From Promethearchaeota archaeon (GTDB lineage: Archaea; Asgardarchaeota; Lokiarchaeia; Sigyniarchaeales; SOKP01), in NCBI GenBank assembly GCA_008080735.1, contig SHMW01000058.1:1-27438 (forward strand): a stretch of 27,438 nucleotides of DNA, read 5' to 3'. Numbering within the stretch: the stretch's first letter is position 1; the number at the start of each line of letters is the position of its first letter. The notes under the pieces are model-generated. The model worked only from the letters and a program-made list of their open reading frames with translations. It ran no database searches and was not told the origin of the DNA. Position numbers and translations under genes: made by a program. Shown one piece after another: positions 3,891 through 25,126 of the stretch.

Positions 3891-5111
3891 ATGGATCAAA
3901 ATGAAAAAGCAATTTTGAAAAGAATCGAGAACATTCGACAAGAGATTGTAGAATTTCATCAAAAGTTAGTCCAAATCCCCTCCGAAAACCCTCCTTCCAA
4001 TTATAAAGAGATTTCTAATTTTACTAAATCTAAGATGGAAGAGATTGGTTTATCTCCAAAAATAAAGCGAAAAAATGTAGTTGGAACATATGGAAATGAG
4101 AATGGGAAATCTCTAATCTTCTATGGACATCTCGATACGGTCGAGGCGTTTAAAGGGTGGTCAAAAGATCCTTTTGGAGGAGAACTCATTGAGAACCGAA
4201 TTTATGGGCGGGGTTCTTCGGATGATAAATCATGTGTGACCGCGGAATTGTTTGCTGTAAAGACCTTAAAAGATTTAGGAATAAATTTAAATGGGAAAAT
4301 AGACATTGCTGCCGTGGTAGATGAAGAGACAGGAGGACTAAGAGGAGCGGAGTATTTACTCAATAGCGGAATAATTAGTGGCGATGCATGTCTATTGGGT
4401 GATGCTCCCGCGGGTGCACCTATTGGCTATACGGGTGGTGCGATTTTTGTTACATTTACTGTCAATGGAAAACAAGCACACGGAATGAATCATCCCGATG
4501 TTCCAGAACCTTACCGTGATGAACATTCTGGTATTAATACTATTCAACGAATGGTTAAATTAATGAATTTTTTGCTGGAACTCAAAGAAGATCTGAACAA
4601 AAATGTGACTAAGTATCCTTTTCCTCCTGGGTTTCCCTCAAAGGTGAGCGATATTAATTTAGCAGAAATTCATGGGGGAAATAAGATTACCACCGTCCCA
4701 AAAAAATGTTTTCTCCACTGCAGCATTAATACCATCCCCGAACAGAAAGTGGAACCCATAAAACAAAAAATTATGGAACACATAGATCAGATGAAAAAGG
4801 AGGATCCTCTTTTGGATATCACCGTGCAAATGCCAATTGTGTTTGATCCAGGGTTAATTGACGAAGATTCAAAATTTGCGAAAGTAGTACAAAATGTAAC
4901 AAAGCAGGTATACGGAGAACCAAAAGAGTTTGCGACTTTCATACCCACCACGGATGCCCACTGGTTCCAAGAACGAGGTATTCATACGATACTAATCGGT
5001 TCCATACGCCCTGAAAATAAAGTGCATGCGGAAGATGAGTTTGTCTATATCGAAGATCTTTTGGATTTGGTCAAGATTTATGCGCTCACAGCATACAGAT
5101 ATCTAAAATAA
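3891..5111 (+). CDS. M20 family metallopeptidase (ArgE/DapE-like deacylase)
   Basis: GHLDTV, IYGRGSSDDK, DEETGG, GKQAHG, TDA, VHAEDE motifs. Confidence 0.92.
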   Translation: MDQNEKAILKRIENIRQEIVEFHQKLVQIPSENPPSNYKEISNFTKSKMEEIGLSPKIKRKNVVGTYGNENGKSLIFYGHLDTVEAFKGWSKDPFGGELIENRIYGRGSSDDKSCVTAELFAVKTLKDLGINLNGKIDIAAVVDEETGGLRGAEYLLNSGIISGDACLLGDAPAGAPIGYTGGAIFVTFTVNGKQAHGMNHPDVPEPYRDEHSGINTIQRMVKLMNFLLELKEDLNKNVTKYPFPPGFPSKVSDINLAEIHGGNKITTVPKKCFLHCSINTIPEQKVEPIKQKIMEHIDQMKKEDPLLDITVQMPIVFDPGLIDEDSKFAKVVQNVTKQVYGEPKEFATFIPTTDAHWFQERGIHTILIGSIRPENKVHAEDEFVYIEDLLDLVKIYALTAYRYLK

Positions 5112-5129
5112 GAATTAATCTTTATCGAG

Positions 5130-5831
5130 CTAAAAATAATCATCTATTTTTTTATTTTGATCATTACAACGCCGTTCGATTCCATCTCTAAGTCCTGGGA
5201 GCTCAAAACATTTATCGGGGATCATTTGCTTAAAATAACGCTGATTTTGTCTCTGCGCTATATTTTGTGTTTGATATAGTGTTTCAAAAATTTCCTTGCC
5301 AGAAAATTGGATATCCTCAAAATAGGGGATAATTGGCCTGTTTTTGCTAATTTTTTCTACCACTACTTGAAGCGGTAAATCAACTTCTCTTAAAGTTCCC
5401 TGCTCATTAATTATTCCCGTTTTCTGGGTATGTTCATTATACAAGCAAATAATACATTTAGGCCACCTTTCATGAAAATAATTCAGAACAAGATCCATTA
5501 CCTTATGTTTTAACAAGACGACCCCATATAACACCCCACGATCATTAATATTCGTACGGGTAAACTGTTTTGCTCTGTAAGATTCTCGAAAAATTTCTCG
5601 AACCATTCTAATAAGTTTTTTAGCCATTGGAGTTCCTAAATTCCGTAGTACAACATCTGGAAGTCGCTTAATATGTTTGATTAAATCTGGGGAGTAATTC
5701 TCGTGACGGGTAATATTTTTAATTAGCTCTTCACGGGAATAGCCTTTACATCGTCCAATCACTTCCAAAGGGTCTTTATCATCACTATTTTCATTATTAA
5801 TATTAGTATATGCGGTCATTTTGGGATTCAC
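5130..5831 (-). CDS. DUF4130-like protein (TIGR03915-type partner of the DNA-repair radical SAM)
   Basis: RESYRAKQFTR...YF.ERWP...IAQRQN.RYFKQMIP resembles the DUF4130 pattern. It lies 5 nt downstream of the radical SAM gene, the usual pairing. Confidence 0.75.
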   Translation of the reverse strand: MNPKMTAYTNINNENSDDKDPLEVIGRCKGYSREELIKNITRHENYSPDLIKHIKRLPDVVLRNLGTPMAKKLIRMVREIFRESYRAKQFTRTNINDRGVLYGVVLLKHKVMDLVLNYFHERWPKCIICLYNEHTQKTGIINEQGTLREVDLPLQVVVEKISKNRPIIPYFEDIQFSGKEIFETLYQTQNIAQRQNQRYFKQMIPDKCFELPGLRDGIERRCNDQNKKIDDYF

Positions 5832-5836
5832 CTATT

Positions 5837-7153
5837 CTAATGCATTACTTTTTGTTGATATTTCTGAAAAAAATCATTCATCGTTGTTTGATTGGTGCCA
5901 TTAACCTTTAGAAATGGATCGGCCCGCTTCAATACGACGCCTACCGACTTCAATTGTTCCCTTCTCTTGAATTTGAAGTTTTTGGCTTGGAGATTAATGA
6001 TCCGTTTTGCTGAAATTGGTCCGATACCCGGTACGCGAAGTAGATCTTGATAGCTCGCTTCATTCGGATCCACCTTGCTATGATCTTCAAAATAATGACG
6101 GGCAATATGGATTTTCGGATCTCCTTCAGGAAGATTCTCATCCTTGGTTAATATGGTCTTTAAATCATCCATATCATAATGATAAATCCTCAAAAGCCAA
6201 TCGCTCTGATAGAGTCTATGCTCTCTGGCTAATGGTGCGGCGGTTTTACTTGCAAGCGGAGTCCCCTCAATCGGTATGAAAGATGAGAAATAGGCTCGCC
6301 GTAAATCCATTTTTTGATATTGCCAATCGATTCTTCTGAGTAGATCCCAATCTGATTCTTGTTCTACTGCACCTATAACAAATTGAGTCGTCTGACCACC
6401 ATTAAGAATCGGGGCTCCATCCCAGCGAAACTTTTTATAACCATTTTTCCTGCGATCATTAATCATTTTTTCTTGGAATTTAAGTTCTTTATCTTCTTTC
6501 AAATCTTTGAGTTCTCTCAGAGTTTCCCTATTATGATCTAATCTTAAGCTTTTAATCCATCTCTGCCTTACAAGGATATCGTTTTTAAAATCCTTCTGTG
6601 AAGAGATCTCCTCCAAATAGCTTTTTCTAGAAGCTTCGGAATTAATAGAGATGCGATCAGAAAGAGCTATGGCTTCCTTAAGAAGATATTGGCTGACTCC
6701 AGGAAGACATTTGAAATGCACGTATCCTTGAAAGTTATATTTGAATCGTAAAAGTCGCACAGCTTCTAGCATTTCTTCAGTAGTCTCATCTGCATTTTTA
6801 CAAACACCCGAGGATATGAATACCCCTTCCACCACATTCATGGAATAGAGTTTCATAAAGGTTCGTGCATATTCTTCGGGGGTAAAACTCGTCCGTTGTG
6901 TACAACTCTGGGAAAAGCAATATTTACAATCGTAAATGCATTTATTGGTGTACAATGTTTTAAACAGGCTCATACAGCGACCATCGCGGGTGTAGCTATG
7001 ACAAATTCCCGCACTTGCGGTTGCTCCTATCCAATCTTTCGATTGTCCGAATAGTTTTGGATATTTTGTTGTACGACTGGAGGCGGTACTGGCACATATA
7101 TCGTATTTCGAGTTCTCTCCCAAGATTCTAATCTTTTCTAAGGTGGAGGGCAT
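5837..7153 (-). CDS. Putative DNA modification/repair radical SAM protein with C-terminal HhH (TIGR03916-type)
   Basis: KYDICAS, GICHSYTRDGRC, CIYDCKYC (CxxxCxxC), GQTTQFVIGA, REHRLYQSDWLLRIY, LLRVPGIGPISAKRI (HhH). Confidence 0.92.
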   Translation of the reverse strand: MPSTLEKIRILGENSKYDICASTASSRTTKYPKLFGQSKDWIGATASAGICHSYTRDGRCMSLFKTLYTNKCIYDCKYCFSQSCTQRTSFTPEEYARTFMKLYSMNVVEGVFISSGVCKNADETTEEMLEAVRLLRFKYNFQGYVHFKCLPGVSQYLLKEAIALSDRISINSEASRKSYLEEISSQKDFKNDILVRQRWIKSLRLDHNRETLRELKDLKEDKELKFQEKMINDRRKNGYKKFRWDGAPILNGGQTTQFVIGAVEQESDWDLLRRIDWQYQKMDLRRAYFSSFIPIEGTPLASKTAAPLAREHRLYQSDWLLRIYHYDMDDLKTILTKDENLPEGDPKIHIARHYFEDHSKVDPNEASYQDLLRVPGIGPISAKRIINLQAKNFKFKRREQLKSVGVVLKRADPFLKVNGTNQTTMNDFFQKYQQKVMH

Positions 7154-7462
7154 ATATGAAGAACACCCAAAATGAGATTTATTATTTTGTTTAGGATAGA
7201 TGGATGAATCAAATTATATAAAAAATTAGGGGGTTAAGAAATTTCAAAATCCAGATCTTGACCAATTAATTTTTTGATTTTTTTTAGGAGAAGAAAAGAA
7301 CTCAAGAGCGCATCGGCTTATAATTAGGAGTATAGGAGAATTAGTTTGGATCTTCTTTCTTTTTTTGTGAATAATTAAAAACGTCCTTTAGCGTGAGTTG
7401 ATTGAAGATAAAAGCATAGAATCCATTTTTAAATCCATCGTAAAAAAATGAAATAAACAAAA

Positions 7463-10195
7463 TTAATATTGTCTCTCCACTGTTAATTTCCAATGAAGTC
7501 CTTTTTCAGTAACATTTTTACCCCTCACGACAATCCCGTGTTCATCTCTCTGAAACTCTTTTTCTTGCTCATTTATCAGAAGTTTTTGAACTTGTGGATA
7601 TATATTGCCCTTAAATTGTAATTCAATCGTCCATTTTCCTACCGTCTTGGGATTGTACCAACCGCTATAGCCATTATGCGTTTTTTTCAATCCTACTAGT
7701 GGGGATGAAAACTCATAGGTAGTTTTGGGGAAATCTAGACAGATCTTAATTCCAGTTTGAGTGAACTCAATTCCTAACAAATGGAGGATATTATAAAGAG
7801 GCCAAGCATGCGGATGGAGGTTTAAAACCGGGAAATCAGTCCAATTGATTCCCGTTGAGATCGGATTATCTCCTTTATCTTTAGGATCGCCACTTAGATA
7901 AAATTTGTTGAAAATGGTGTGTCCAGGGAATTCTGAAAACACCGAATTTATGGTATCGGGTCCACTCCAAATGCCATACCAAATTTCCGGATATGTTTCT
8001 GCATGGTATGCTAATAGATTCTTTTTATATTCATCCCACGCCATTTCTGGATCGACTTTTCTCAACGCCCAAATTAAAGTTCCATTGATGGACGGCCAAA
8101 TTCCCGCACTATTTCCCATCCCAGGGGGTGAATTCTCGTTTTCGATCACTTCGCTCTGTAAAATTGCTCCAAGTTCAGATGGTTGACGAACTTTCTTATC
8201 TATATTTTTTACCAATACTTTCTTTTTCTCATCATCGAGCGCCTCAGATATGATTGCCCAAGGTTGCGGTTCTAACCATAAAATATCATCACCAACCCAT
8301 CCAATTGCGTCCGTTAACCACGCCCTTCTCAACCATTTACCATTCCATTGTTCTCTCAATGCATCTTTCATATCATTTGCATAATCTCGAGCTTTCTGTG
8401 CCGTTTCTTCTTCATTTACATACTCCATTAAGGTGGCAAAAAGAGGTAATACATAGGCTGCCATCGCCGAGTTTAGAACTGATTCTCCTTTCTTTTTCAC
8501 TTCCACTAATTTATCATCTGGAACAAATCCAGAGATTATTAAATCGTTCCAATCACAGCTGGCGACTCTTTGTAGTCCATGCTCTCCTTTTCCCGTATTT
8601 TCTGTAAAATGACGGTATATGAGTTTTAAAAATTCTTTTATTGATATGGTACTAGAACTTTTTTTATAAATCGGATACAGAGGAATCTCCTCCTCTAAGA
8701 ATCCGGGATCTTTTGAAGAAAGGACATAATTAGCTGTAAGCCAAAGCACCCATAACTCTGTGTCACTCGGTTCCCACGGTGACGGCATAATTGCCCCATT
8801 CCCCGTTATTCCGTAGGGGATCTTCCCATTCTTTTTTGTTTCTTTGAAGGTGTATCGGATAATTTCTTTTGCAATTTCAGGATCGGTGTATAAAAAGGGC
8901 ATAGCATGTTGTGGTGGATCGCGAGCAGCTCCTTGAAATCCTATTAAATATTGATATATGTGTCCTTGAGAAAGTATATGTTCCATAAAAAAGTCATCAT
9001 AGGTAAGCCCGCCCCGTAAATAATAGTAATGCCAGAGAATCTCCCGTGATACCCATTTTTCTCCCTCTACCTCGAGTTTTGGTCCCACGGATTTCCAGGC
9101 TTCCAATGTGTTCATTAGTACGCTTTCTGTCTGGGTTAAATGTGTATATTTTTCAATTAAATCATTTAAACCAAATCCCTCGGGAATATATCCATACATA
9201 AAGATTAGGGTCTTAGTTTCTTTTGGTTTGAGTTCAAAATCTTTCCTTAGCACCATACAACTTTGAAAATCTTCCATTTGGATATTAAAAGAAGCTTTAG
9301 AGGATACTCCCCGAGGATTACTCACGCCTCCGTTTCCAAAAAACTTCTGCGCGTCCGTATAGCACCCTTGAATTGGTCCGTCTAAGCTTATTAAAAATAT
9401 CGGAGGAGGGTTTCGATCTTCAAAAATAGGCTTCTTTTTTCCAATCTGGATGCCTCTTTTTCTTAAATCGAAATCTTTTTGTTGCTCTGCATTTCTTGAT
9501 GACGGATTAAATTTCATATTGAATAAACCTCTATTATCATCAAGCAAAATGAATCTATTTTTGAATTTCTTTTCAGATTCCACGCGATATTTCTTCAGAA
9601 GATTCTGATCTTGCTTCCCAATTGCTTGAATAACAGCTTGAAATGAAAATTGGAAATTAAAACACCCCCAATATTCAAACCAACTGAGCTCGGCATTCGT
9701 ATCAGTTTGATTTGTGAAAGAAACTTGAGAAATCACCACTGGATCATCGCCAAATGGAGCAAAAATTCTCTGATCGATTGAATAATTCGCATTTGAAACT
9801 GTTTTCCGACAGTATCCCATACCAAAAATTCTTTCCTTAAATTGAGTTGGCTCAGAATAATAGGTCGTGAGAAGATTTACTCCGTCGGTTAGATATCCGA
9901 ATCCCCCCGCATATTGGTGTAATTCCGGAAGATAATAATTTAAATATTTAGGACTTCCCTCATCTTGGCGGATCTTAATATATCCATAATTGGAAGCAAC
10001 CCCCGCAATTCTATCATTCCCCACCAAAAAATAATGGTCGGTTTTTTCACGCCATAACTCATTCATCGGGGTAGTTGCCCTAGGATCCGCTAGTTGATTA
10101 CATTCATATCGATAAGCAGGTGCTCCAAACCTATCTTCTATCCATCTCCCAAAATAACCGGAGCCATATGGCTTCTCATTATTTCTGGCATTCAT
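7463..10195 (-). CDS. GH94-like glycoside phosphorylase/hydrolase, (alpha/alpha)6 barrel
   Basis: 910 aa with RDxxQ (ARDPPQ), SDTELW, DWND...GESV and WLEPQPWA motifs typical of cellobiose-phosphorylase-like proteins. Confidence 0.78.
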   Translation of the reverse strand: MNARNNEKPYGSGYFGRWIEDRFGAPAYRYECNQLADPRATTPMNELWREKTDHYFLVGNDRIAGVASNYGYIKIRQDEGSPKYLNYYLPELHQYAGGFGYLTDGVNLLTTYYSEPTQFKERIFGMGYCRKTVSNANYSIDQRIFAPFGDDPVVISQVSFTNQTDTNAELSWFEYWGCFNFQFSFQAVIQAIGKQDQNLLKKYRVESEKKFKNRFILLDDNRGLFNMKFNPSSRNAEQQKDFDLRKRGIQIGKKKPIFEDRNPPPIFLISLDGPIQGCYTDAQKFFGNGGVSNPRGVSSKASFNIQMEDFQSCMVLRKDFELKPKETKTLIFMYGYIPEGFGLNDLIEKYTHLTQTESVLMNTLEAWKSVGPKLEVEGEKWVSREILWHYYYLRGGLTYDDFFMEHILSQGHIYQYLIGFQGAARDPPQHAMPFLYTDPEIAKEIIRYTFKETKKNGKIPYGITGNGAIMPSPWEPSDTELWVLWLTANYVLSSKDPGFLEEEIPLYPIYKKSSSTISIKEFLKLIYRHFTENTGKGEHGLQRVASCDWNDLIISGFVPDDKLVEVKKKGESVLNSAMAAYVLPLFATLMEYVNEEETAQKARDYANDMKDALREQWNGKWLRRAWLTDAIGWVGDDILWLEPQPWAIISEALDDEKKKVLVKNIDKKVRQPSELGAILQSEVIENENSPPGMGNSAGIWPSINGTLIWALRKVDPEMAWDEYKKNLLAYHAETYPEIWYGIWSGPDTINSVFSEFPGHTIFNKFYLSGDPKDKGDNPISTGINWTDFPVLNLHPHAWPLYNILHLLGIEFTQTGIKICLDFPKTTYEFSSPLVGLKKTHNGYSGWYNPKTVGKWTIELQFKGNIYPQVQKLLINEQEKEFQRDEHGIVVRGKNVTEKGLHWKLTVERQY

Positions 10196-16910: not shown

Positions 16911-18428
16911 TCATAGATTTTTATGTAAATTCGTCAGATAGTTCTCAGCAGTATCCAAGAGATGATTTAGGTCGTTTTTATCTTTTTTGTTCAGAATATT
17001 TACCATCAGACTCATACGAGGATTATTTTTAAAGGTTTCTCGATGCTTATGGATGAAGCGCCAGTAGAGCGCATCCCAAATATCACACCATTCACCTTTA
17101 GGATAATCGCTCATTTTTCTTACATAATTGGACGAACTCACATATGGCTTAGTCGTTATAAGCCCTCCATCCGCATAGGTGCTCATTCCATAAACATTTG
17201 GAACCATCACCCAATCATACGCATCGATGAATAGCTCCATAAACCACCTATAGATTTCATCTGGATGGATTTCGCAGAGGGTCATGAAATTTGCCAACAG
17301 CATTAGTCGCTCGATATGATGGAGATATGCATGTTGAAGGAGTTTTTGAATTATATTATCGATCGGAAGGATATTTGTTTCGGCAGTGTAAAATGCTTGG
17401 GGGATTGTCTGTGTGTGGTTCCAATGATTCGAATTTCTTTCATTGACACCTTCTAAGAGATATACAGCGCGAATAAATTCCCTCCAGCCGAGAATTTGGC
17501 GTATGAATCCTTCTAAAGAATTAATCGGGATTTTATTGGTTTTTGAATAGGAGATAGTTTTTTTGATTACCTCCTCTGGAGTTATGAGCCCAGAATTAAG
17601 CAAGGGTGATAGGAGGGAGTGAAAGAGCAGGATCTCCCCTTGCTGCATTGCGTCTTCATAGGGTCCAAACTGCTCAAATCGCTCCTCTAAGAAGGTTTGA
17701 AACCATTTCCATGCGGACTCATAGTCAATAGGATAGAAAAATCTTTCGAGTTCTCCTGGATTATCAGGAAACAGATCTTCTACATAGGTTTTTGCTTCTT
17801 GTACGTATTTATTTGAATCCATATTTATGTGTGGAAGTTGCGGAAGTTCGAGATTTTTGGGAATTTTTTTACGGTTTTTTACATCAAATGTCCATTTTCC
17901 TCCTATAGGGTTTCTATCTTTCATCAAGATGTTCATTCGCTTTCGCTGGTCAATGTAAAATGAGGTTTGTAAATACTTGTCTTTATTGTCAAAATAGTCT
18001 CGGATATACTCCCGAGCGCAGAGAAATCCAGGGGACTTGTACGCTTTTAAATCAATATTATGGGAATTGGATAACGTGTTCAATCTTTTTTCTACTGCCC
18101 AATCTGTTGGATCTGTATAATGAATAGTTTGAACCTTCTGGTTTTTGAATTCTTCAAACAAAGAGTTCATTGAACCAAGACGTTTGTCTTGCTGCTTTAT
18201 CGGAATGTGGTTTATGTATCGCACTGAAAACTCTTTGGAGGTGAGATGATCATAAAAACATCGCATAGACGCTCTGTGAAAGACTAATTTCTTTTTGTGA
18301 AGGTTGATGGGATATTGCGCGTCGTGAAAAAAGAGCGAATCTTCTACAATGTAAACCTCCCGAGTCGAGTCGAGGGCGGGATGTTGTTTAAACAGTTGAT
18401 GGGGAAAAATTAGCGTGATCTCGCTCAT
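16911..18428 (-). CDS. Cryptochrome/photolyase family protein (DPRP/COG3046, PhrB/CryB-related), lacking the Fe-S cysteines
   Basis: IFPHQLF, HKKKLVFHRASM, PIGGKWTFD, FGPYEDAM, EGFIRQILGWREF, HHIERLM, DAYDWVMVPNVYGM, TKPYVSSSNY. Confidence 0.93.
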   Translation of the reverse strand: MSEITLIFPHQLFKQHPALDSTREVYIVEDSLFFHDAQYPINLHKKKLVFHRASMRCFYDHLTSKEFSVRYINHIPIKQQDKRLGSMNSLFEEFKNQKVQTIHYTDPTDWAVEKRLNTLSNSHNIDLKAYKSPGFLCAREYIRDYFDNKDKYLQTSFYIDQRKRMNILMKDRNPIGGKWTFDVKNRKKIPKNLELPQLPHINMDSNKYVQEAKTYVEDLFPDNPGELERFFYPIDYESAWKWFQTFLEERFEQFGPYEDAMQQGEILLFHSLLSPLLNSGLITPEEVIKKTISYSKTNKIPINSLEGFIRQILGWREFIRAVYLLEGVNERNSNHWNHTQTIPQAFYTAETNILPIDNIIQKLLQHAYLHHIERLMLLANFMTLCEIHPDEIYRWFMELFIDAYDWVMVPNVYGMSTYADGGLITTKPYVSSSNYVRKMSDYPKGEWCDIWDALYWRFIHKHRETFKNNPRMSLMVNILNKKDKNDLNHLLDTAENYLTNLHKNL

Positions 18429-18772: not shown

Positions 18773-19211
18773 TTTAATTTATTTTCTTATAATTTATGAT
18801 TAATACTAAAACTTTCTTCAAGGCGGCGAGTATTATGCCAATTTGAATATTCTGAAAATCTAATGTTCTTTGAAATAATTTTAAAACCATTATCGTGCTA
18901 TGATCCTTACATATATGTTTCCTTACTGCTCAGAGAAGAATTATAACTTCTGTTTAAATATAAAGAAAAGAACCTAATTTTTTTCATCATGGACTTTCCA
19001 TTTCACTACATTATTATAATAAGAAATAATCAGATTCACTTTAATTATAGGTTTATTAATAGATAGACACATTTATCTGCATAAAATTATAAATCGGAAA
19101 GATCATATTACTTATAGAAAACAAAAAACAGATTTGTGATAGGTATAAGAATCTAATAAATAATCAAAGATCAGAAGTCTAAATTACCAGTTTATTTGGA
19201 TAAAATTGAAT

Positions 19212-20702
19212 ATGATTGACCAGCTCTACCAAAAAGGAAAGGCATATTATAAAAGCCAAAATTACGAAAAAGCTCTCGAGATATTTAGCGAATTAAAGGA
19301 CTACGACGAAAAACATCTAATCGCCTTGAAATTTCTCAGTTTATGCTATGCTCACCTTGAGGATTACAAGAATGCGATAAAAACTTTTGAAAAGGGGATT
19401 GAGCTCGATGAGAATAATGAAGTTTTTTGGATGAATTTGGTTAAAGCTCTTTTTCAAGTTGGTAATCATAAAAAGCTGATCAAAAAAGCTCGAATGGCAA
19501 AACAAAAATTTCCCAATAATGAATTCTTTTGTAACATAATTGGTGTTGCATATTTAAATTTGAACGATATAGAGAAAGCAATCGATTCCTTTAAGAAAGC
19601 ATTAAGAATAAGCGAGAGATCTAAAAAATCGTGGGTTTACCTATGCAGAGCATATAACATGAAAGGAGTAAATTTTAGATATGATGATTATAAACCTAAT
19701 ACAGAAATCTCATGGTATTTTCTCGCTAAAGAGTTGATGCTTAGTGAATTTTATGAAGATGCCATCTACGCGTGTAATTTTGCCCTCAAAATTAATCCGA
19801 GTTTTGAAGGTGCTTTTACCTTACGGAATAAAATCCGAGATATAAAACAGCAGACACCAAAACTTAAAGCGAGACAGAAAGTAAAAAAAAAACCACCGAA
19901 AGGTCCACCTAGAAAGAAACTTAAGGTCGAAAAGGAAACTTCCCGTTATGAACTCTATGATCAAAGGATGAAAAAATTTCAAGATCGATTTAAGCAACTC
20001 AAATCTGTAGAAACTCAAGAAAAAGGAGAGGAGGAATCACTAGACAAAAGGATGGAAGAAGCTAGAAAGCGATTAGAGATGCTGAAGCTTGAGGATTCTG
20101 ATGTTTATTTCGAATCAAAAAAGCAAATTTCAGACACGGATGCAGATGAGGGAGAAGAGAAGGATTATTTTATGGAATCTAAAAAAGAATTTGATATTCA
20201 GAATCTTAGTAGCGGTCAAACTCAAAATGAGAAGCCTAAACCTGAACCCGAAATATACTTAGGAAATACACGCTGCGAATTAAAAGACATCACTTTTGTC
20301 ATTGATGGGGCAAATCTCGCTCTCTATGATGCGGATACTAATGATAAAGATGATATTGTAAAGGGAAATGTCTGGAGATTAGAGGTTTTAATTGATACCA
20401 TGAAATCTCTGGGCATCTCAGATTATTTAGTCATGTTTGATAGGGCTCTGATATATAAAATTGATGAACCCGATGCCTATGAACAGTTACTAAAGAAGGA
20501 AAATTTTATCGAGGTGACGGGCGGAACTCAAGCGGATAATTTCATATTACAATATGCAAAAAAAGAGAATGCCTATATTATCTCGAATGATATGTTCCGA
20601 GACTTCTATGAGGTATATGGTAGAGATTGGATTGTTGAGAAACGCATTGCGTTCCAGTTCGTCAATGATTTCTTGTTTTTCGATAAGATTTCCGTAATAT
20701 AA
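19212..20702 (+). CDS. TPR-repeat protein with C-terminal NYN/PIN (Zc3h12a/Regnase-like) ribonuclease domain
   Basis: About five TPR-like repeats, a charged linker, then FVIDGANLA...FD...ADNFIL..A...IISNDMFRD with the acidic catalytic set intact. ATG at 19212. Confidence 0.85.
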   Translation: MIDQLYQKGKAYYKSQNYEKALEIFSELKDYDEKHLIALKFLSLCYAHLEDYKNAIKTFEKGIELDENNEVFWMNLVKALFQVGNHKKLIKKARMAKQKFPNNEFFCNIIGVAYLNLNDIEKAIDSFKKALRISERSKKSWVYLCRAYNMKGVNFRYDDYKPNTEISWYFLAKELMLSEFYEDAIYACNFALKINPSFEGAFTLRNKIRDIKQQTPKLKARQKVKKKPPKGPPRKKLKVEKETSRYELYDQRMKKFQDRFKQLKSVETQEKGEEESLDKRMEEARKRLEMLKLEDSDVYFESKKQISDTDADEGEEKDYFMESKKEFDIQNLSSGQTQNEKPKPEPEIYLGNTRCELKDITFVIDGANLALYDADTNDKDDIVKGNVWRLEVLIDTMKSLGISDYLVMFDRALIYKIDEPDAYEQLLKKENFIEVTGGTQADNFILQYAKKENAYIISNDMFRDFYEVYGRDWIVEKRIAFQFVNDFLFFDKISVI

Positions 20703-22317: not shown

Positions 22318-23589
22318 ATGCCAGAATTTCTAACAGAATATCAAACGGAATTGGATGCGAAATCGAAGAGAATCATCTCGGACTATGAAGATAAAAAAAT
22401 CAATAAGTTCTATGAACCCTATTTCACACAATATTGGAATGTGCATAAACTTACAGATGAGATTCCCGCGGAAAAAGTACTGGCGGTCGATGGGAGTATG
22501 GGAGTTGCTCCAATTGGAAATGGCGGGATTTTCTACGTGGTTCGAGCGCTTGGAATAGATAAGGAAAAACGGTATCGGAAGATATTTGCTGATTTTAATT
22601 ATTCGAATGAGCGGAATTTTGGGAATTTTGTGGGAAGACTGATGGAATGGACCGAGCATTTGGTCATGATTGACGCAATTAAGGACGGATTTCGGGATTT
22701 TATCTTGTTGGACGGCTCCATCTATGGCAGATTAGCCCACGTACCACTGGAATGGGACCTACTCAATTCCAAGGGGTTTATGATCGAATATTTCGACACT
22801 ATTATCGAGCTCTTAAGTCTCTGCAAAAACCATTCCATCCCCATCATTGGAATAAGCAAGGAAAGTAAGACATCCTTTTTCAGAGAATTTCTCATCAAGG
22901 AAATGATTAAGGATATAATACCCGATGACCGCTTGAGAAAGAAATTAATAAGCGTGACGCTCAATGATAGACGATTGGGCGTTCAGGAAGCGCAAAAAAC
23001 CGGTGATAAGAGAATTATCACATTGATTAATGAATTAGTCCACAGAAAACCGGATTCATTGTTAGTTCTTAGCCGCAGCAATAACGGTAATAATTCGGGC
23101 TACACGCAACCGCTAATCCTTGGGGGAAGCCAGAGATGGCATCGCGCAGTACGGGAAATAGAGCGCAGCGCTCGCTCCTACATCACCTCCAATTTTCCGG
23201 TCTCTTCGGAAGATGATGAGTTCATGGACAGAGCGGTGGAAGTGGTTGAACGGCTTACGGAGGTACCCGCGATTATCTCATTCCACTTACTTCCCCAAGT
23301 CATTGATACACCGATGCGAATTGATATTCCCGCATGGTACTTTGACTCTCCGCACAAACTTAAGGAAATGGGCTGGCCAGAACCGATTGAGATCGATTTA
23401 GACACCATCTTGAAGCTCATCTCATCCGGTTATTGCGGCTTGGAGAATTATAATATTTGGTTATCTCATGTAGATTCGGAAGTAAAATTAAAGAGGAACG
23501 TGTTTGAAGAACTGTATATAAATAAATTTGAAGAAATTATAGGAACATATTCAACAGCAAGAGGTTATAGACGTGTCAGGTACCCATAA
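22318..23589 (+). CDS. nurA: DNA double-strand break repair nuclease NurA
   Basis: VLAVDGS, E.LV, ILLDGSI, IGISKES, RID motifs. First gene of the operon with herA, mre11 and rad50. Confidence 0.9.
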   Translation: MPEFLTEYQTELDAKSKRIISDYEDKKINKFYEPYFTQYWNVHKLTDEIPAEKVLAVDGSMGVAPIGNGGIFYVVRALGIDKEKRYRKIFADFNYSNERNFGNFVGRLMEWTEHLVMIDAIKDGFRDFILLDGSIYGRLAHVPLEWDLLNSKGFMIEYFDTIIELLSLCKNHSIPIIGISKESKTSFFREFLIKEMIKDIIPDDRLRKKLISVTLNDRRLGVQEAQKTGDKRIITLINELVHRKPDSLLVLSRSNNGNNSGYTQPLILGGSQRWHRAVREIERSARSYITSNFPVSSEDDEFMDRAVEVVERLTEVPAIISFHLLPQVIDTPMRIDIPAWYFDSPHKLKEMGWPEPIEIDLDTILKLISSGYCGLENYNIWLSHVDSEVKLKRNVFEELYINKFEEIIGTYSTARGYRRVRYP

Positions 23590-25126
23590 AATAGGTATGA
23601 TTATTGGAGAGGCAAAACCCACCGAGTTCGTGTTTGCGACTCACGAAGATGTCTCTCGATTGGAATATTTGCTCATTAAGTCAACGGAAAATGTAGCAGG
23701 AGGCGAACTAGATGTCGAGATCGTGGCCCAAATTTCCACCATTTATTCGGGGTCAAAAGCCTTAATGGAAGGTATTAAACTAACGGACGCCGAAAAGATT
23801 CAAGAAGCCGGATTAGTTGATAATCGGACCTTCGCGATGGCAAAAGTGTTGGGCTTCCTTCATAAGGGACAGATTTATCAACCAAGGCGTGCGATTCAAC
23901 CCGGAAAAGAAGTCTATTTAGCACCCGAAGATCTGTTGGAACAATTCTATTCATATCCCAAGGGTGAGGGATTGACCATCGGCAATTTGATCACGCGACC
24001 GAAAGTGCCCGTACGGATCACGCTGAAAGGTTTTAGAAGGCATCTTGCCATCTTGGCTCAGACAGGCGCAGGAAAAAGTTATACCGCCGGGGTGTTAGCC
24101 GAAGAATTATTTGATAAGGGCGCCACGATTTTGATCATAGACCCGCACGCCGATTATGTCTTTTTAGGCAATAAGAAAGGCGGAGGGAACATTAACAGGT
24201 TTGACGTTTTCCGCACCCCCCAAAGTACGGGGCGATATGATGAGTCCAAGATCGGCAAAAAAATTCAACCGTACCAAGTCAAGTTCTCTGATTTAAGCCA
24301 GAATGAGATCGAAAAAGTAAGCGGAATCCACGAGCGATTTACGAATATCTCCGGAGCGCTTAGAGCTGCTTTGGATGAGCTCGGCGATGGATATAGCTTA
24401 GAAGATCTTCTGGATGTTTTAGACCAAGGTGATGCGAATGCGAAGAAAGCGAGAAATTATGTGGAACGGTTGTCCTATATGAACGTATTCGGCACCGCAA
24501 CTACGGATTATGAAAAGTTTTTGAAACCGAAATATTTATCTGTGCTGGATCTCTCTGGGTTGGACGATAGCGTGTCAGATTATATTAACTATCGAATTAT
24601 GCGAGATATCTATCAGACTGCTGAGAGAGGGGACCTTGACTTTCCAGTATTTATCTTTATTGAAGAAGCGCATCGGCTTATTCCTTCCCGAGAAAACACG
24701 CTCTCTAAAAATATCATTAAGCGGATCGCCGCAGAAGGACGTAAGTTTGGGGTGTTTCTGGTCCTTATTACTCAGCGACCATACAAGATAGACCAAGACG
24801 CGTTGAGTCAATGCAACAGTCAAATTATCATGCGAATGACCAACCCCGAAGATCAAAAGGCCATTAAAACCAGTTCGGAACGCGTGAGCGAAGAATTATT
24901 GGACGATTTACCCGGGCTGAATGTGGGTGAGGCTGTAGTCGTCGGGGAGATCACTCGAGCACCAATTATGGTCAAGATCAGAGAACGCAAGACCCAAGAG
25001 GGAGGCGGTGATATCGATATTGTAGGCAAATTAAGTGAAGCTCGCGATGCTGCCGTGACTGAAGAAAAAGAAAAGCCAGAACGATTGAAACAAGAAGTGG
25101 AAGATCTCAAAAGCATGATGGAATGA
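23573..25126 (+). CDS. herA: HerA ATPase / DNA translocase
   Basis: HAS-barrel-like N-terminus, RHLAILAQTGAGKS (Walker A), IDPH.DY, FIEEAH (Walker B), EGRKFG, TQRP, SQCN. The GTG start overlaps nurA. Confidence 0.95.
   Translation: MSGTHKIGMIIGEAKPTEFVFATHEDVSRLEYLLIKSTENVAGGELDVEIVAQISTIYSGSKALMEGIKLTDAEKIQEAGLVDNRTFAMAKVLGFLHKGQIYQPRRAIQPGKEVYLAPEDLLEQFYSYPKGEGLTIGNLITRPKVPVRITLKGFRRHLAILAQTGAGKSYTAGVLAEELFDKGATILIIDPHADYVFLGNKKGGGNINRFDVFRTPQSTGRYDESKIGKKIQPYQVKFSDLSQNEIEKVSGIHERFTNISGALRAALDELGDGYSLEDLLDVLDQGDANAKKARNYVERLSYMNVFGTATTDYEKFLKPKYLSVLDLSGLDDSVSDYINYRIMRDIYQTAERGDLDFPVFIFIEEAHRLIPSRENTLSKNIIKRIAAEGRKFGVFLVLITQRPYKIDQDALSQCNSQIIMRMTNPEDQKAIKTSSERVSEELLDDLPGLNVGEAVVVGEITRAPIMVKIRERKTQEGGGDIDIVGKLSEARDAAVTEEKEKPERLKQEVEDLKSMME

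Follow-up and report, generated by a model that had tools for sequence, protein, structure and literature searches.

A radical SAM/DUF4130 gene pair of Asgard archaea with candidate PCNA-binding tails on both subunits

The stretch of DNA analysed here, called the window in what follows, is contig SHMW01000058.1 (27,438 nucleotides; C58 in our numbering) of the Promethearchaeota archaeon assembly GCA_008080735.1, a 4.1-Mb archaeal metagenome-assembled genome (MAG) with a completeness of 93% and a contamination of 7%. The labels of close homologues of its proteins, Promethearchaeota or Lokiarchaeota, likewise place it among the Asgard archaea. Two adjacent genes on its minus strand encode a radical S-adenosylmethionine (SAM) protein with a helix-hairpin-helix (HhH) domain (438 amino acids, positions 5837..7153) and a DUF4130 protein (229 amino acids, positions 5130..5819), and each protein carries near or at its C-terminus a short motif of the PCNA-interacting protein (PIP) box type. 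An earlier reading made from the letters alone, referred to below as the sequence-only reading, had recognised this pair and the two motifs and had proposed that both subunits dock on archaeal PCNA. The nature of the pair is borne out by profile searches, which return TIGR03916 and the Pfam families Radical_SAM and HHH_3 for the larger protein and Pfam DUF4130 for the smaller one, and both motifs are indeed encoded at the ends of the two genes.

The radical SAM protein matches TIGR03916 with 347.3 bits for a cut-off of 343.5, a narrow margin that is accounted for by the insertion of the Asgard form and by the tail. Its CX3CX2C motif for the [4Fe-4S]/SAM cluster (C72, C76 and C79; 6917..6940, minus strand as for all features of the pair) was identified by alignment of homologues, where the three Cys residues form invariant columns in one alignment and are Cys in 125 of the 127 rows of a second one. 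The insertion, of about 45 amino acids (residues ~205–250; 6404..6541) relative to most non-Asgard homologues, is delimited by the fact that most representatives align to the protein in two stretches, ~1–204 and 250–428. It is charged and helical, with helices at residues 189–218 and 224–232 in the AlphaFold2 (AF2) model of this region, and is of lower confidence (predicted local distance difference test, pLDDT, of 52–79) than the model as a whole (mean pLDDT 85.8). A ComEA-like HhH DNA-binding domain follows at residues 358–404 (5942..6082; PF12836 HHH_3, 45.2 bits for a cut-off of 27), and the PIP box QTTMNDFF (Q422–F429; 5867..5890) is read from the codons caa aca acg atg aat gat ttt ttt, nine residues before the stop and two residues beyond the conserved ..KRADPFLKVNG core. 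Six further Cys residues (C20, C51, C60, C84, C118 and C149) are invariant or nearly so across 31 Asgard radical SAM sequences, and at three of these positions (C20, C51 and C60) 29–54% of the other radical SAM members have a Cys as well; this conservation could reflect a second Fe-S cluster.

The DUF4130 protein (PF13566, 47.1 bits for a cut-off of 27; pLDDT of its AF2 model 84.5) is a short and divergent archaeal form which reaches only 37.1 bits on TIGR03915, for a cut-off of 112.25, and aligns to profile positions 89–235 only, the ~88 N-terminal positions being absent. While its open reading frame (ORF) opens with a GTG at 5831, the start is most likely the ATG at 5819, because homologues begin there and because a Shine-Dalgarno-like element, AGGTGA (5828..5833), lies 8 nucleotides upstream, between the stop codon of the radical SAM gene (5837–5839) and this ATG. 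The gene thus begins 17 nucleotides downstream of the radical SAM gene on the same strand, a gap which suggests that the two are co-transcribed. Its last residues, QNKKIDDYF, are read at 5159..5133 and are directly followed by the stop codon at 5132–5130, so that the PIP-like motif NKKIDDYF (N222–F229 in the 229-residue numbering; 5133..5156) forms the last eight residues of the protein. When both motifs are set against the consensus Qxx[ILM]xx[FY][FY], QTTMNDFF of the radical SAM protein conforms, whereas NKKIDDYF of DUF4130 does not, having an Asn in place of the Gln.

Both motifs are strongly conserved in Asgard archaea. For the radical SAM protein, 119 unfused homologues (74–99% identity) were gathered from Asgard MAGs that bear the names Loki-, Thor-, Odin-, Heimdall-, Hod- and Hermodarchaeota; in these, the Gln, the [LIM] at +3 and the [FY] at +6 are invariant (119/119), while position +7 is variable (F in 35, I in 32, T in 28, and others). 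Residues beyond the motif vary or are missing, and the 429-residue forms end exactly with the motif. Likewise, all 120 Asgard homologues of the DUF4130 protein have a terminal x-x-x-[LIM]-x-x-[FY]-x, whose first residue is N in 111 of them, and in 109 of the 120 this motif is the very end of the protein. Over the two sets, at 63–99% identity, anchor positions are therefore fixed while adjacent positions vary, and in the AF2 models the confidence falls along the radical SAM tail (pLDDT 90, then 63, then 47 across the last 28 residues) and is low in the last block of DUF4130 (pLDDT 54). Short linear motifs are recognised by just this pattern, fixed anchors inside variable tails of low predicted confidence. 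Conservation in archaeal orthologues, on which the proposal of the sequence-only reading hinged, is thus found, the motifs being invariant or nearly so in Asgards and recurring in most of the other archaeal lineages sampled.

Two side observations concern the same Asgard sequences. In about three-quarters of the radical SAM homologues, the extreme C-terminus bears a further semi-conserved element, ..[KT]-I-[LS]-Q-[GSR]-[EG]-I; the protein of the window is devoid of it and ends in QKYQQKVMH. Furthermore, the radical SAM protein is 74–80% identical across the Loki-, Thor-, Odin-, Heimdall-, Hod- and Hermodarchaeota MAGs, which is unusually high for an accessory repair enzyme and suggests that its conserved role is an important one; this identity could be explained by strong selection or by recent transfer between Asgard archaea.

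The type of the tail depends on the domain of life. Eighty named loci, one genome per species, were collected with the pattern GY[IVL]H[LFT]K[IVL][LM]PG; they are almost wholly non-Asgard, as the Asgard copies read GYVHFKCLPG, and a single Hodarchaeota locus (L049) was caught. The 70 archaeal loci come from Woese-, Nano-, Alti- and Micrarchaeota, Methanosarcinales, Methanothrix, Thermoplasmata, Methanofastidiosa and Methanobacterium, besides the Hodarchaeota one. Their radical SAM tails start 2–3 residues after the last HhH helix (..KRAxPF[IL]K[IL]NG) and comprise 49 strict [QD]xx[LIM]xx[FWY] motifs, no beta-clamp-type motif and 21 variants, such as EYSRLDRW in Methanofastidiosa or the shortened YQTTL and YQSVLSF in Methanobacterium. 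Nine of the 10 bacterial tails, by contrast, are of the beta-clamp type (QLTLW, QLSFF, QLTLF, QISLW...) and follow a linker of 10–25 residues. The lone bacterial tail of the PIP type, VQARLSKWL, belongs to a 6.7-kb contig (L062, JAIVYC010000028.1) of a MAG labelled 'Sulfurovum sp.', with no DUF4130 hit; this archaeal-type tail could reflect horizontal transfer or a mis-binned archaeal contig. The association between tail type and domain gives a Fisher p of 8e-10 for the 80 loci, a value that is overstated because relatives are not independent, and both classes of tail recur among 150 representatives clustered at 50% identity. Proteins in which the radical SAM and DUF4130 parts are fused retain a clamp motif in the inter-domain linker, QTTLCNFF in the Asgard fusion P0090, EQLSFF and DQLSLF in the bacterial fusions P0273 and P0300. 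As to the DUF4130 partners, at least 27 of 36 non-Asgard archaeal ones have TLDDF[LF]-like ends, whereas none of six bacterial ones has a clamp motif, their ends reading ..IPKKYWDWLxEGKIL... Altogether, these sequences indicate that the clamp motif of the radical SAM subunit differs between the domains of life, being PIP in archaea and QLxLF in bacteria. The statement of the sequence-only reading that bacterial members often end in QLxLF-type motifs therefore stands for the radical SAM subunit and fails for bacterial DUF4130.

We then compared the two tails with those of the whole genome, using 3450 crude ORFs that cover 84% of its bases. A strict PIP motif (Qxx[ILM]xx[FY][FY]) occurs in the last 25 residues of only nine of these ORFs and the N-type motif in the last 10 residues of only eight, and known PCNA clients are prominent among the ten tail-bearing ORFs that were annotated: the two screens recover the DP2 subunit of PolD (KQQKLSDFF) and RNase HII (NKKITQYFE), and a broader Q-type screen also finds PolB, the Y-family polymerase and Nre (QRTIDDFL). 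Because so few ORFs bear such tails and PCNA clients stand out among them, the tails exceed what chance would give; the genome appears to use PIP-like tails as expected, and by these counts their occurrence on two adjacent, co-oriented genes is no compositional accident. RNase HII also bears on the Asn of the DUF4130 motif. It is an established PCNA client in archaea, and it ends with N[KRQ]KIT.[YF][FL] in most of 19 genomes of the taxonomic family of the window and with QKK[LI].[DE]F in sister families. The DUF4130 tail NKKIDDYF is nearly identical to that of RNase HII, with which it shares the NKKI..YF form. Since an established client has an Asn at this place, we accept the substitution as a lineage-specific variant, that is, as a local spelling of a real PIP box, as far as sequence comparison can tell.

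A structural model of the complex with the host clamp adds to this. The genome has a single PCNA gene (L001:1495-2298), whose product was modelled, with an alignment of 22 relatives, together with residues 180–229 of DUF4130, with an alignment of 49. The complex of PCNA and the DUF4130 tail scores an ipSAE of 0.65, as compared with 0.00 for the best control and 0.00 for the control in which PCNA was replaced; such a score is attained by 58 of 80 solved complexes and by 2 of 110 mismatched pairs. The runs of the model shared at least 51% of contacts, and the pLDDT of the partner was at least 40, a low value that leaves the fold of the partner itself uncertain, which is normal for a peptide. Confident contacts link DUF4130 residues 221–229 to PCNA residues 41, 44–48, 128–135, 206, 231–232 and 248–253, which match the surfaces that known PIP peptides bind, namely the hydrophobic pocket, the C-terminal strand and the interdomain connecting loop. 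The model thus supports binding of the DUF4130 tail to the host PCNA at the canonical PIP site, and for this tail the modelling check put forward by the sequence-only reading came out in its favour. It should be read as a likeness to solved PIP–PCNA complexes rather than as proof, because complexes of this kind have already been solved and the score may mirror that likeness.

That no uracil-DNA glycosylase (UDG) gene lies next to the pair, as the sequence-only reading had remarked, extends well beyond the locus, since the UDG family PF03167 has no match anywhere in the 93%-complete genome and none in the seven genomes of the genus, this one included (completeness 61–98%). Among 31 genomes of relatives, PF03167 is found in eight, and in only two of the 18 further genomes of the family of the window, while TIGR03916 is matched in 23 of the 31, strongly so in 21. 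As controls for this search, Caulobacter vibrioides, Thermus thermophilus, Bacteroides thetaiotaomicron and Thermotoga maritima gave a TIGR03916 match too. An anticorrelation between the module and UDG was considered across these 31 relatives and rejected, as no consistent pattern emerged: in the family of the window, UDG occurs only in two genomes devoid of the module, and in sister families the two co-occur.

Structural comparisons differ in what they tell about the two subunits. The radical SAM model, searched with Foldseek against the PDB, finds generic neighbours with TM-scores of 0.36–0.50, HydE on top (9e-8), followed by others such as HydG, PFL-AE, BioB, LipA and viperin. The spore photoproduct lyase (SPL) is absent from the top rows, and no SPL family figures among the Pfam or NCBIfam hits of the protein. 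The DUF4130 model resembles the linker and DHHA1 part of RecJ (2zxo_A; Z 7.8, rmsd 3.3, 130 aligned), and a run of DHHA1 proteins comes after RecJ in the structure list, at 5–10% identity; the predicted fold is thus DHHA1/RecJ-like, although a Z below 8 is borderline and within the range of a common arrangement. This agrees with a preprint (bioRxiv 10.64898/2026.08.19.745780) in which an AlphaFold 3 model of the bacterial pair predicts a tight heterodimer and in which a non-catalytic, nucleic-acid-binding role is suggested for DUF4130, the catalytic residues being, according to the same preprint, not conserved. Aravind and colleagues had tied DUF4130 to SplB-like radical SAM enzymes and to UDGs (PMC3765255), and the COG1573-COG4277 operon is reported to be under LexA/SOS control in Bacteroidetes, Verrucomicrobia and Alphaproteobacteria (PMC8565304). 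Full-text literature searches returned no paper mentioning a clamp motif in the TIGR03916/DUF4130 family, and literature searches for a radical SAM protein with a clamp-binding motif, a PIP box or UdgX, or for TIGR03916, returned nothing relevant. To speak of an undescribed system, as the sequence-only reading did, is an overstatement, the gene pair being catalogued as an uncharacterised family; only the link to the clamp appears to be unreported.

Taking these elements together, we propose that the pair is the archaeal form of the TIGR03916/DUF4130 module and would constitute a heterodimeric radical SAM enzyme acting on DNA. Its large subunit would combine the [4Fe-4S]/SAM barrel with the HhH DNA-binding domain, and its small subunit would have the DHHA1/RecJ-like fold, probably non-catalytic and probably binding nucleic acids. 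On the only PCNA of the host, each tail would dock beneath the interdomain connecting loop, in the hydrophobic pocket found there; the radical SAM subunit would do so by the canonical QTTMNDFF and DUF4130 by the N-first NKKIDDYF typical of the lineage, so that the heterodimer could fill two of the three sites on the PCNA trimer. Tethered in this way to clamp-loaded DNA, the enzyme would stay at forks, gaps or repair patches and would perform radical chemistry on DNA, most likely the direct reversal or the processing of a base lesion. While the motifs, their conservation, their exchange for a beta-clamp motif in bacteria and a supportive complex model are there to be seen, it is from them that we infer PCNA binding, heterodimer formation in the host, the substrate and the reaction. 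The docking of both subunits, as the sequence-only reading had it, is backed by the conservation, by the switch between domains and by the model of the DUF4130 tail; we regard this predicted binding to the clamp as likely, and the explanation as a whole as probable to a similar degree. Our confidence in any specific chemistry is low. Damage-related repair on clamp-loaded DNA is the most economical reading and our best inference, because the bacterial operons are SOS-regulated and clamp motifs are present as well; an enzyme for replication-coupled DNA modification is an alternative compatible with the same observations. A broader version, in which the whole family would be a clamp-dependent radical SAM DNA repair enzyme whose peptide was exchanged between beta-clamp and PCNA on crossing domains, the Asgard two-PIP heterodimer removing or reversing on PCNA a replication-blocking base lesion without UDG in lineages devoid of PF03167 matches, is more speculative and, taken as a whole, rather doubtful.

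Several observations weigh against docking on PCNA or leave the proposed DNA chemistry without a lead. The DUF4130 motif is devoid of the canonical Gln. The Methanobacterium radical SAM tails are truncated (YQTTL-stop, YQSVLSF) and lack the usual aromatic spacing, and no adjacent DUF4130 gene was detected at the Methanobacterium/Methanobacteriaceae loci; these shortened-tail loci (L054-L058, L065, L069-L071, L075, L076, L080, L081 and L085) may represent a different, partner-less variant. Neither the Foldseek neighbours nor the genes flanking the pair, an M20 peptidase (convergent) and a GH94-like protein, give a clue to the substrate, the latter being uninformative on function. Finally, the fixed spacing of 2–3 residues between the HhH domain and the archaeal radical SAM motif means that the motif could belong in part to the fold, and AF2 draws the tail residues 425–437 as a helix. 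Such a short spacing and such a helix, along with the tight complex predicted for the bacterial proteins (bioRxiv 10.64898/2026.08.19.745780), are what would be expected if the tails served the enzyme itself, for instance by helping the heterodimer to assemble, by capping the HhH domain or by contacting DNA, and only resembled PIP boxes. We consider this unlikely: bacterial DUF4130 has no tail altogether, so that the tail would be unneeded for assembly, and the bacterial radical SAM protein has at the corresponding place an unrelated beta-clamp motif after a linker of variable length; moreover, the motif is kept in the linkers of fused proteins, both tails are of low pLDDT, and the same N-type tail is found on the RNase HII of the lineage.

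The missing Gln would also suit a partner other than PCNA, namely another replisome or repair protein that reads PIP-like peptides, and in eukaryotic systems PIP-like motifs are shared with other binding sites. However, the domain-wide exchange of PIP for beta-clamp motifs points specifically to the sliding clamp, and the model sets the peptide in the canonical PCNA pocket while its score vanishes when PCNA is replaced, so that we hold such a partner to be improbable, more so than a role within the enzyme. Chance is the least credible of all. The window has a G+C content of ~35%, the proteins of this AT-rich genome have tails rich in N, K, I, F and Y, and similar tails do occur on proteins with no obvious role on DNA, such as a leucine-rich repeat (LRR) protein and kinases; against this stand the rarity of the motifs among the 3450 ORFs, the invariance of their anchor positions amid varying neighbours over the 119 and 120 homologues, and their presence in archaeal lineages of other base composition. 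The conservation data effectively refute a fortuitous origin, to which we grant a negligible probability. Docking of the two tails on PCNA is the reading that we retain.

If so, the implications would go beyond this genome. By the NCBI family description, the TIGR03916/DUF4130 module occurs in roughly a fifth of prokaryotic genomes. It ranks among the more widespread of the enzyme families that are linked to DNA and have no known reaction. A clamp motif that depends on the domain of life would say where and when the enzyme acts, that is, on clamp-loaded DNA, and it gives simple experimental handles such as peptide binding, motif mutants and activity assays with clamp and loader. Clamp docking of this module would add radical SAM chemistry to the activities that sliding clamps organise.

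The rest of the window and of the genome calls for a few separate remarks. At 10–18 kb from the pair lie genes for a photolyase-related protein (DPRP + FAD_binding_7; window 16911-18428), a TPR-NYN (Zc3h12a-like) RNase (19206-20702), and NurA and HerA (22318-25126); the spacing and the intervening genes argue against their forming one operon with the pair. No RNA family was found within the window with Rfam at gathering thresholds, and a scan of positions 5000–7500 for bacterial-type promoters and terminators, a type of scan that is not applicable to archaea, gave fewer sites than shuffled sequences. Elsewhere in the genome, two DUF72 (PF01904) paralogues (L003, C35:1868-2734, and L005, C2:59571-60371) end in clean PIP boxes, GQTSLDKFF and TQKTLTDFL; this family has no established function, and a link to PCNA would suggest a role on DNA. 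Other PIP-like ends are those of a deoxynucleoside-kinase-like protein (KQMNLKKFLK; L009, C36:1665-2387), an AAA_18 kinase-like protein (NNRLNEFFD; L010, C74:7746-8336) and the LRR protein (SQMKITEFF; L004, C41:19124-20680). PolD DP2 (L002, C1:39516-44372) contains an intein with a LAGLIDADG domain, in addition to its canonical C-terminal PIP box KQQKLSDFF.

Among known systems, the closest is the bacterial TIGR03916/TIGR03915 (COG4277 + DUF4130) module, which has the same CX3CX2C barrel and C-terminal HhH domain; in both, DUF4130 lies directly downstream, fused forms exist and the function is uncharacterised. Many bacterial modules are joined to a family-4-like UDG (TIGR03914, COG1573), whereas the archaeal pair is without UDG in its locus, genome and genus, and DUF4130 is here the short archaeal form below the TIGR03915 cut-off, unlike TIGR03915 members. 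Furthermore, the bacterial module has a single beta-clamp motif, which is confined to its radical SAM subunit, while here a PIP-type tail is found on both subunits. The resemblance of the DUF4130 model to DHH/DHHA1 proteins (RecJ, Cdc45/GAN, NrnA, the C-Ala domain of AlaRS) concerns their linker-DHHA1 part.

SplB (COG1533) appears to belong to a family different from that of the radical SAM protein of the pair, whose barrel has generic neighbours (HydE, HydG, PFL-AE), and it is not known to have an HhH domain or a DUF4130 partner, in contrast to the present pair. Nor is SplB known to have a clamp motif. It is nevertheless a radical SAM enzyme acting on DNA too, the label 'SplB-like' has been applied to the TIGR03916 family in the literature (PMC3765255), and both SplB and the TIGR03916 module are SOS-regulated in some bacteria (PMC8565304).

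With the archaeal PCNA clients (RNase HII, PolD DP2, PolB, the Y-family polymerase and Nre), the pair has in common a C-terminal [QN]xx[LIM]xx[FY][FL] motif. No radical SAM enzyme figures among these known clients in the literature searched and, unlike them, the pair described here has the motif on each of two subunits of what is probably a single enzyme.

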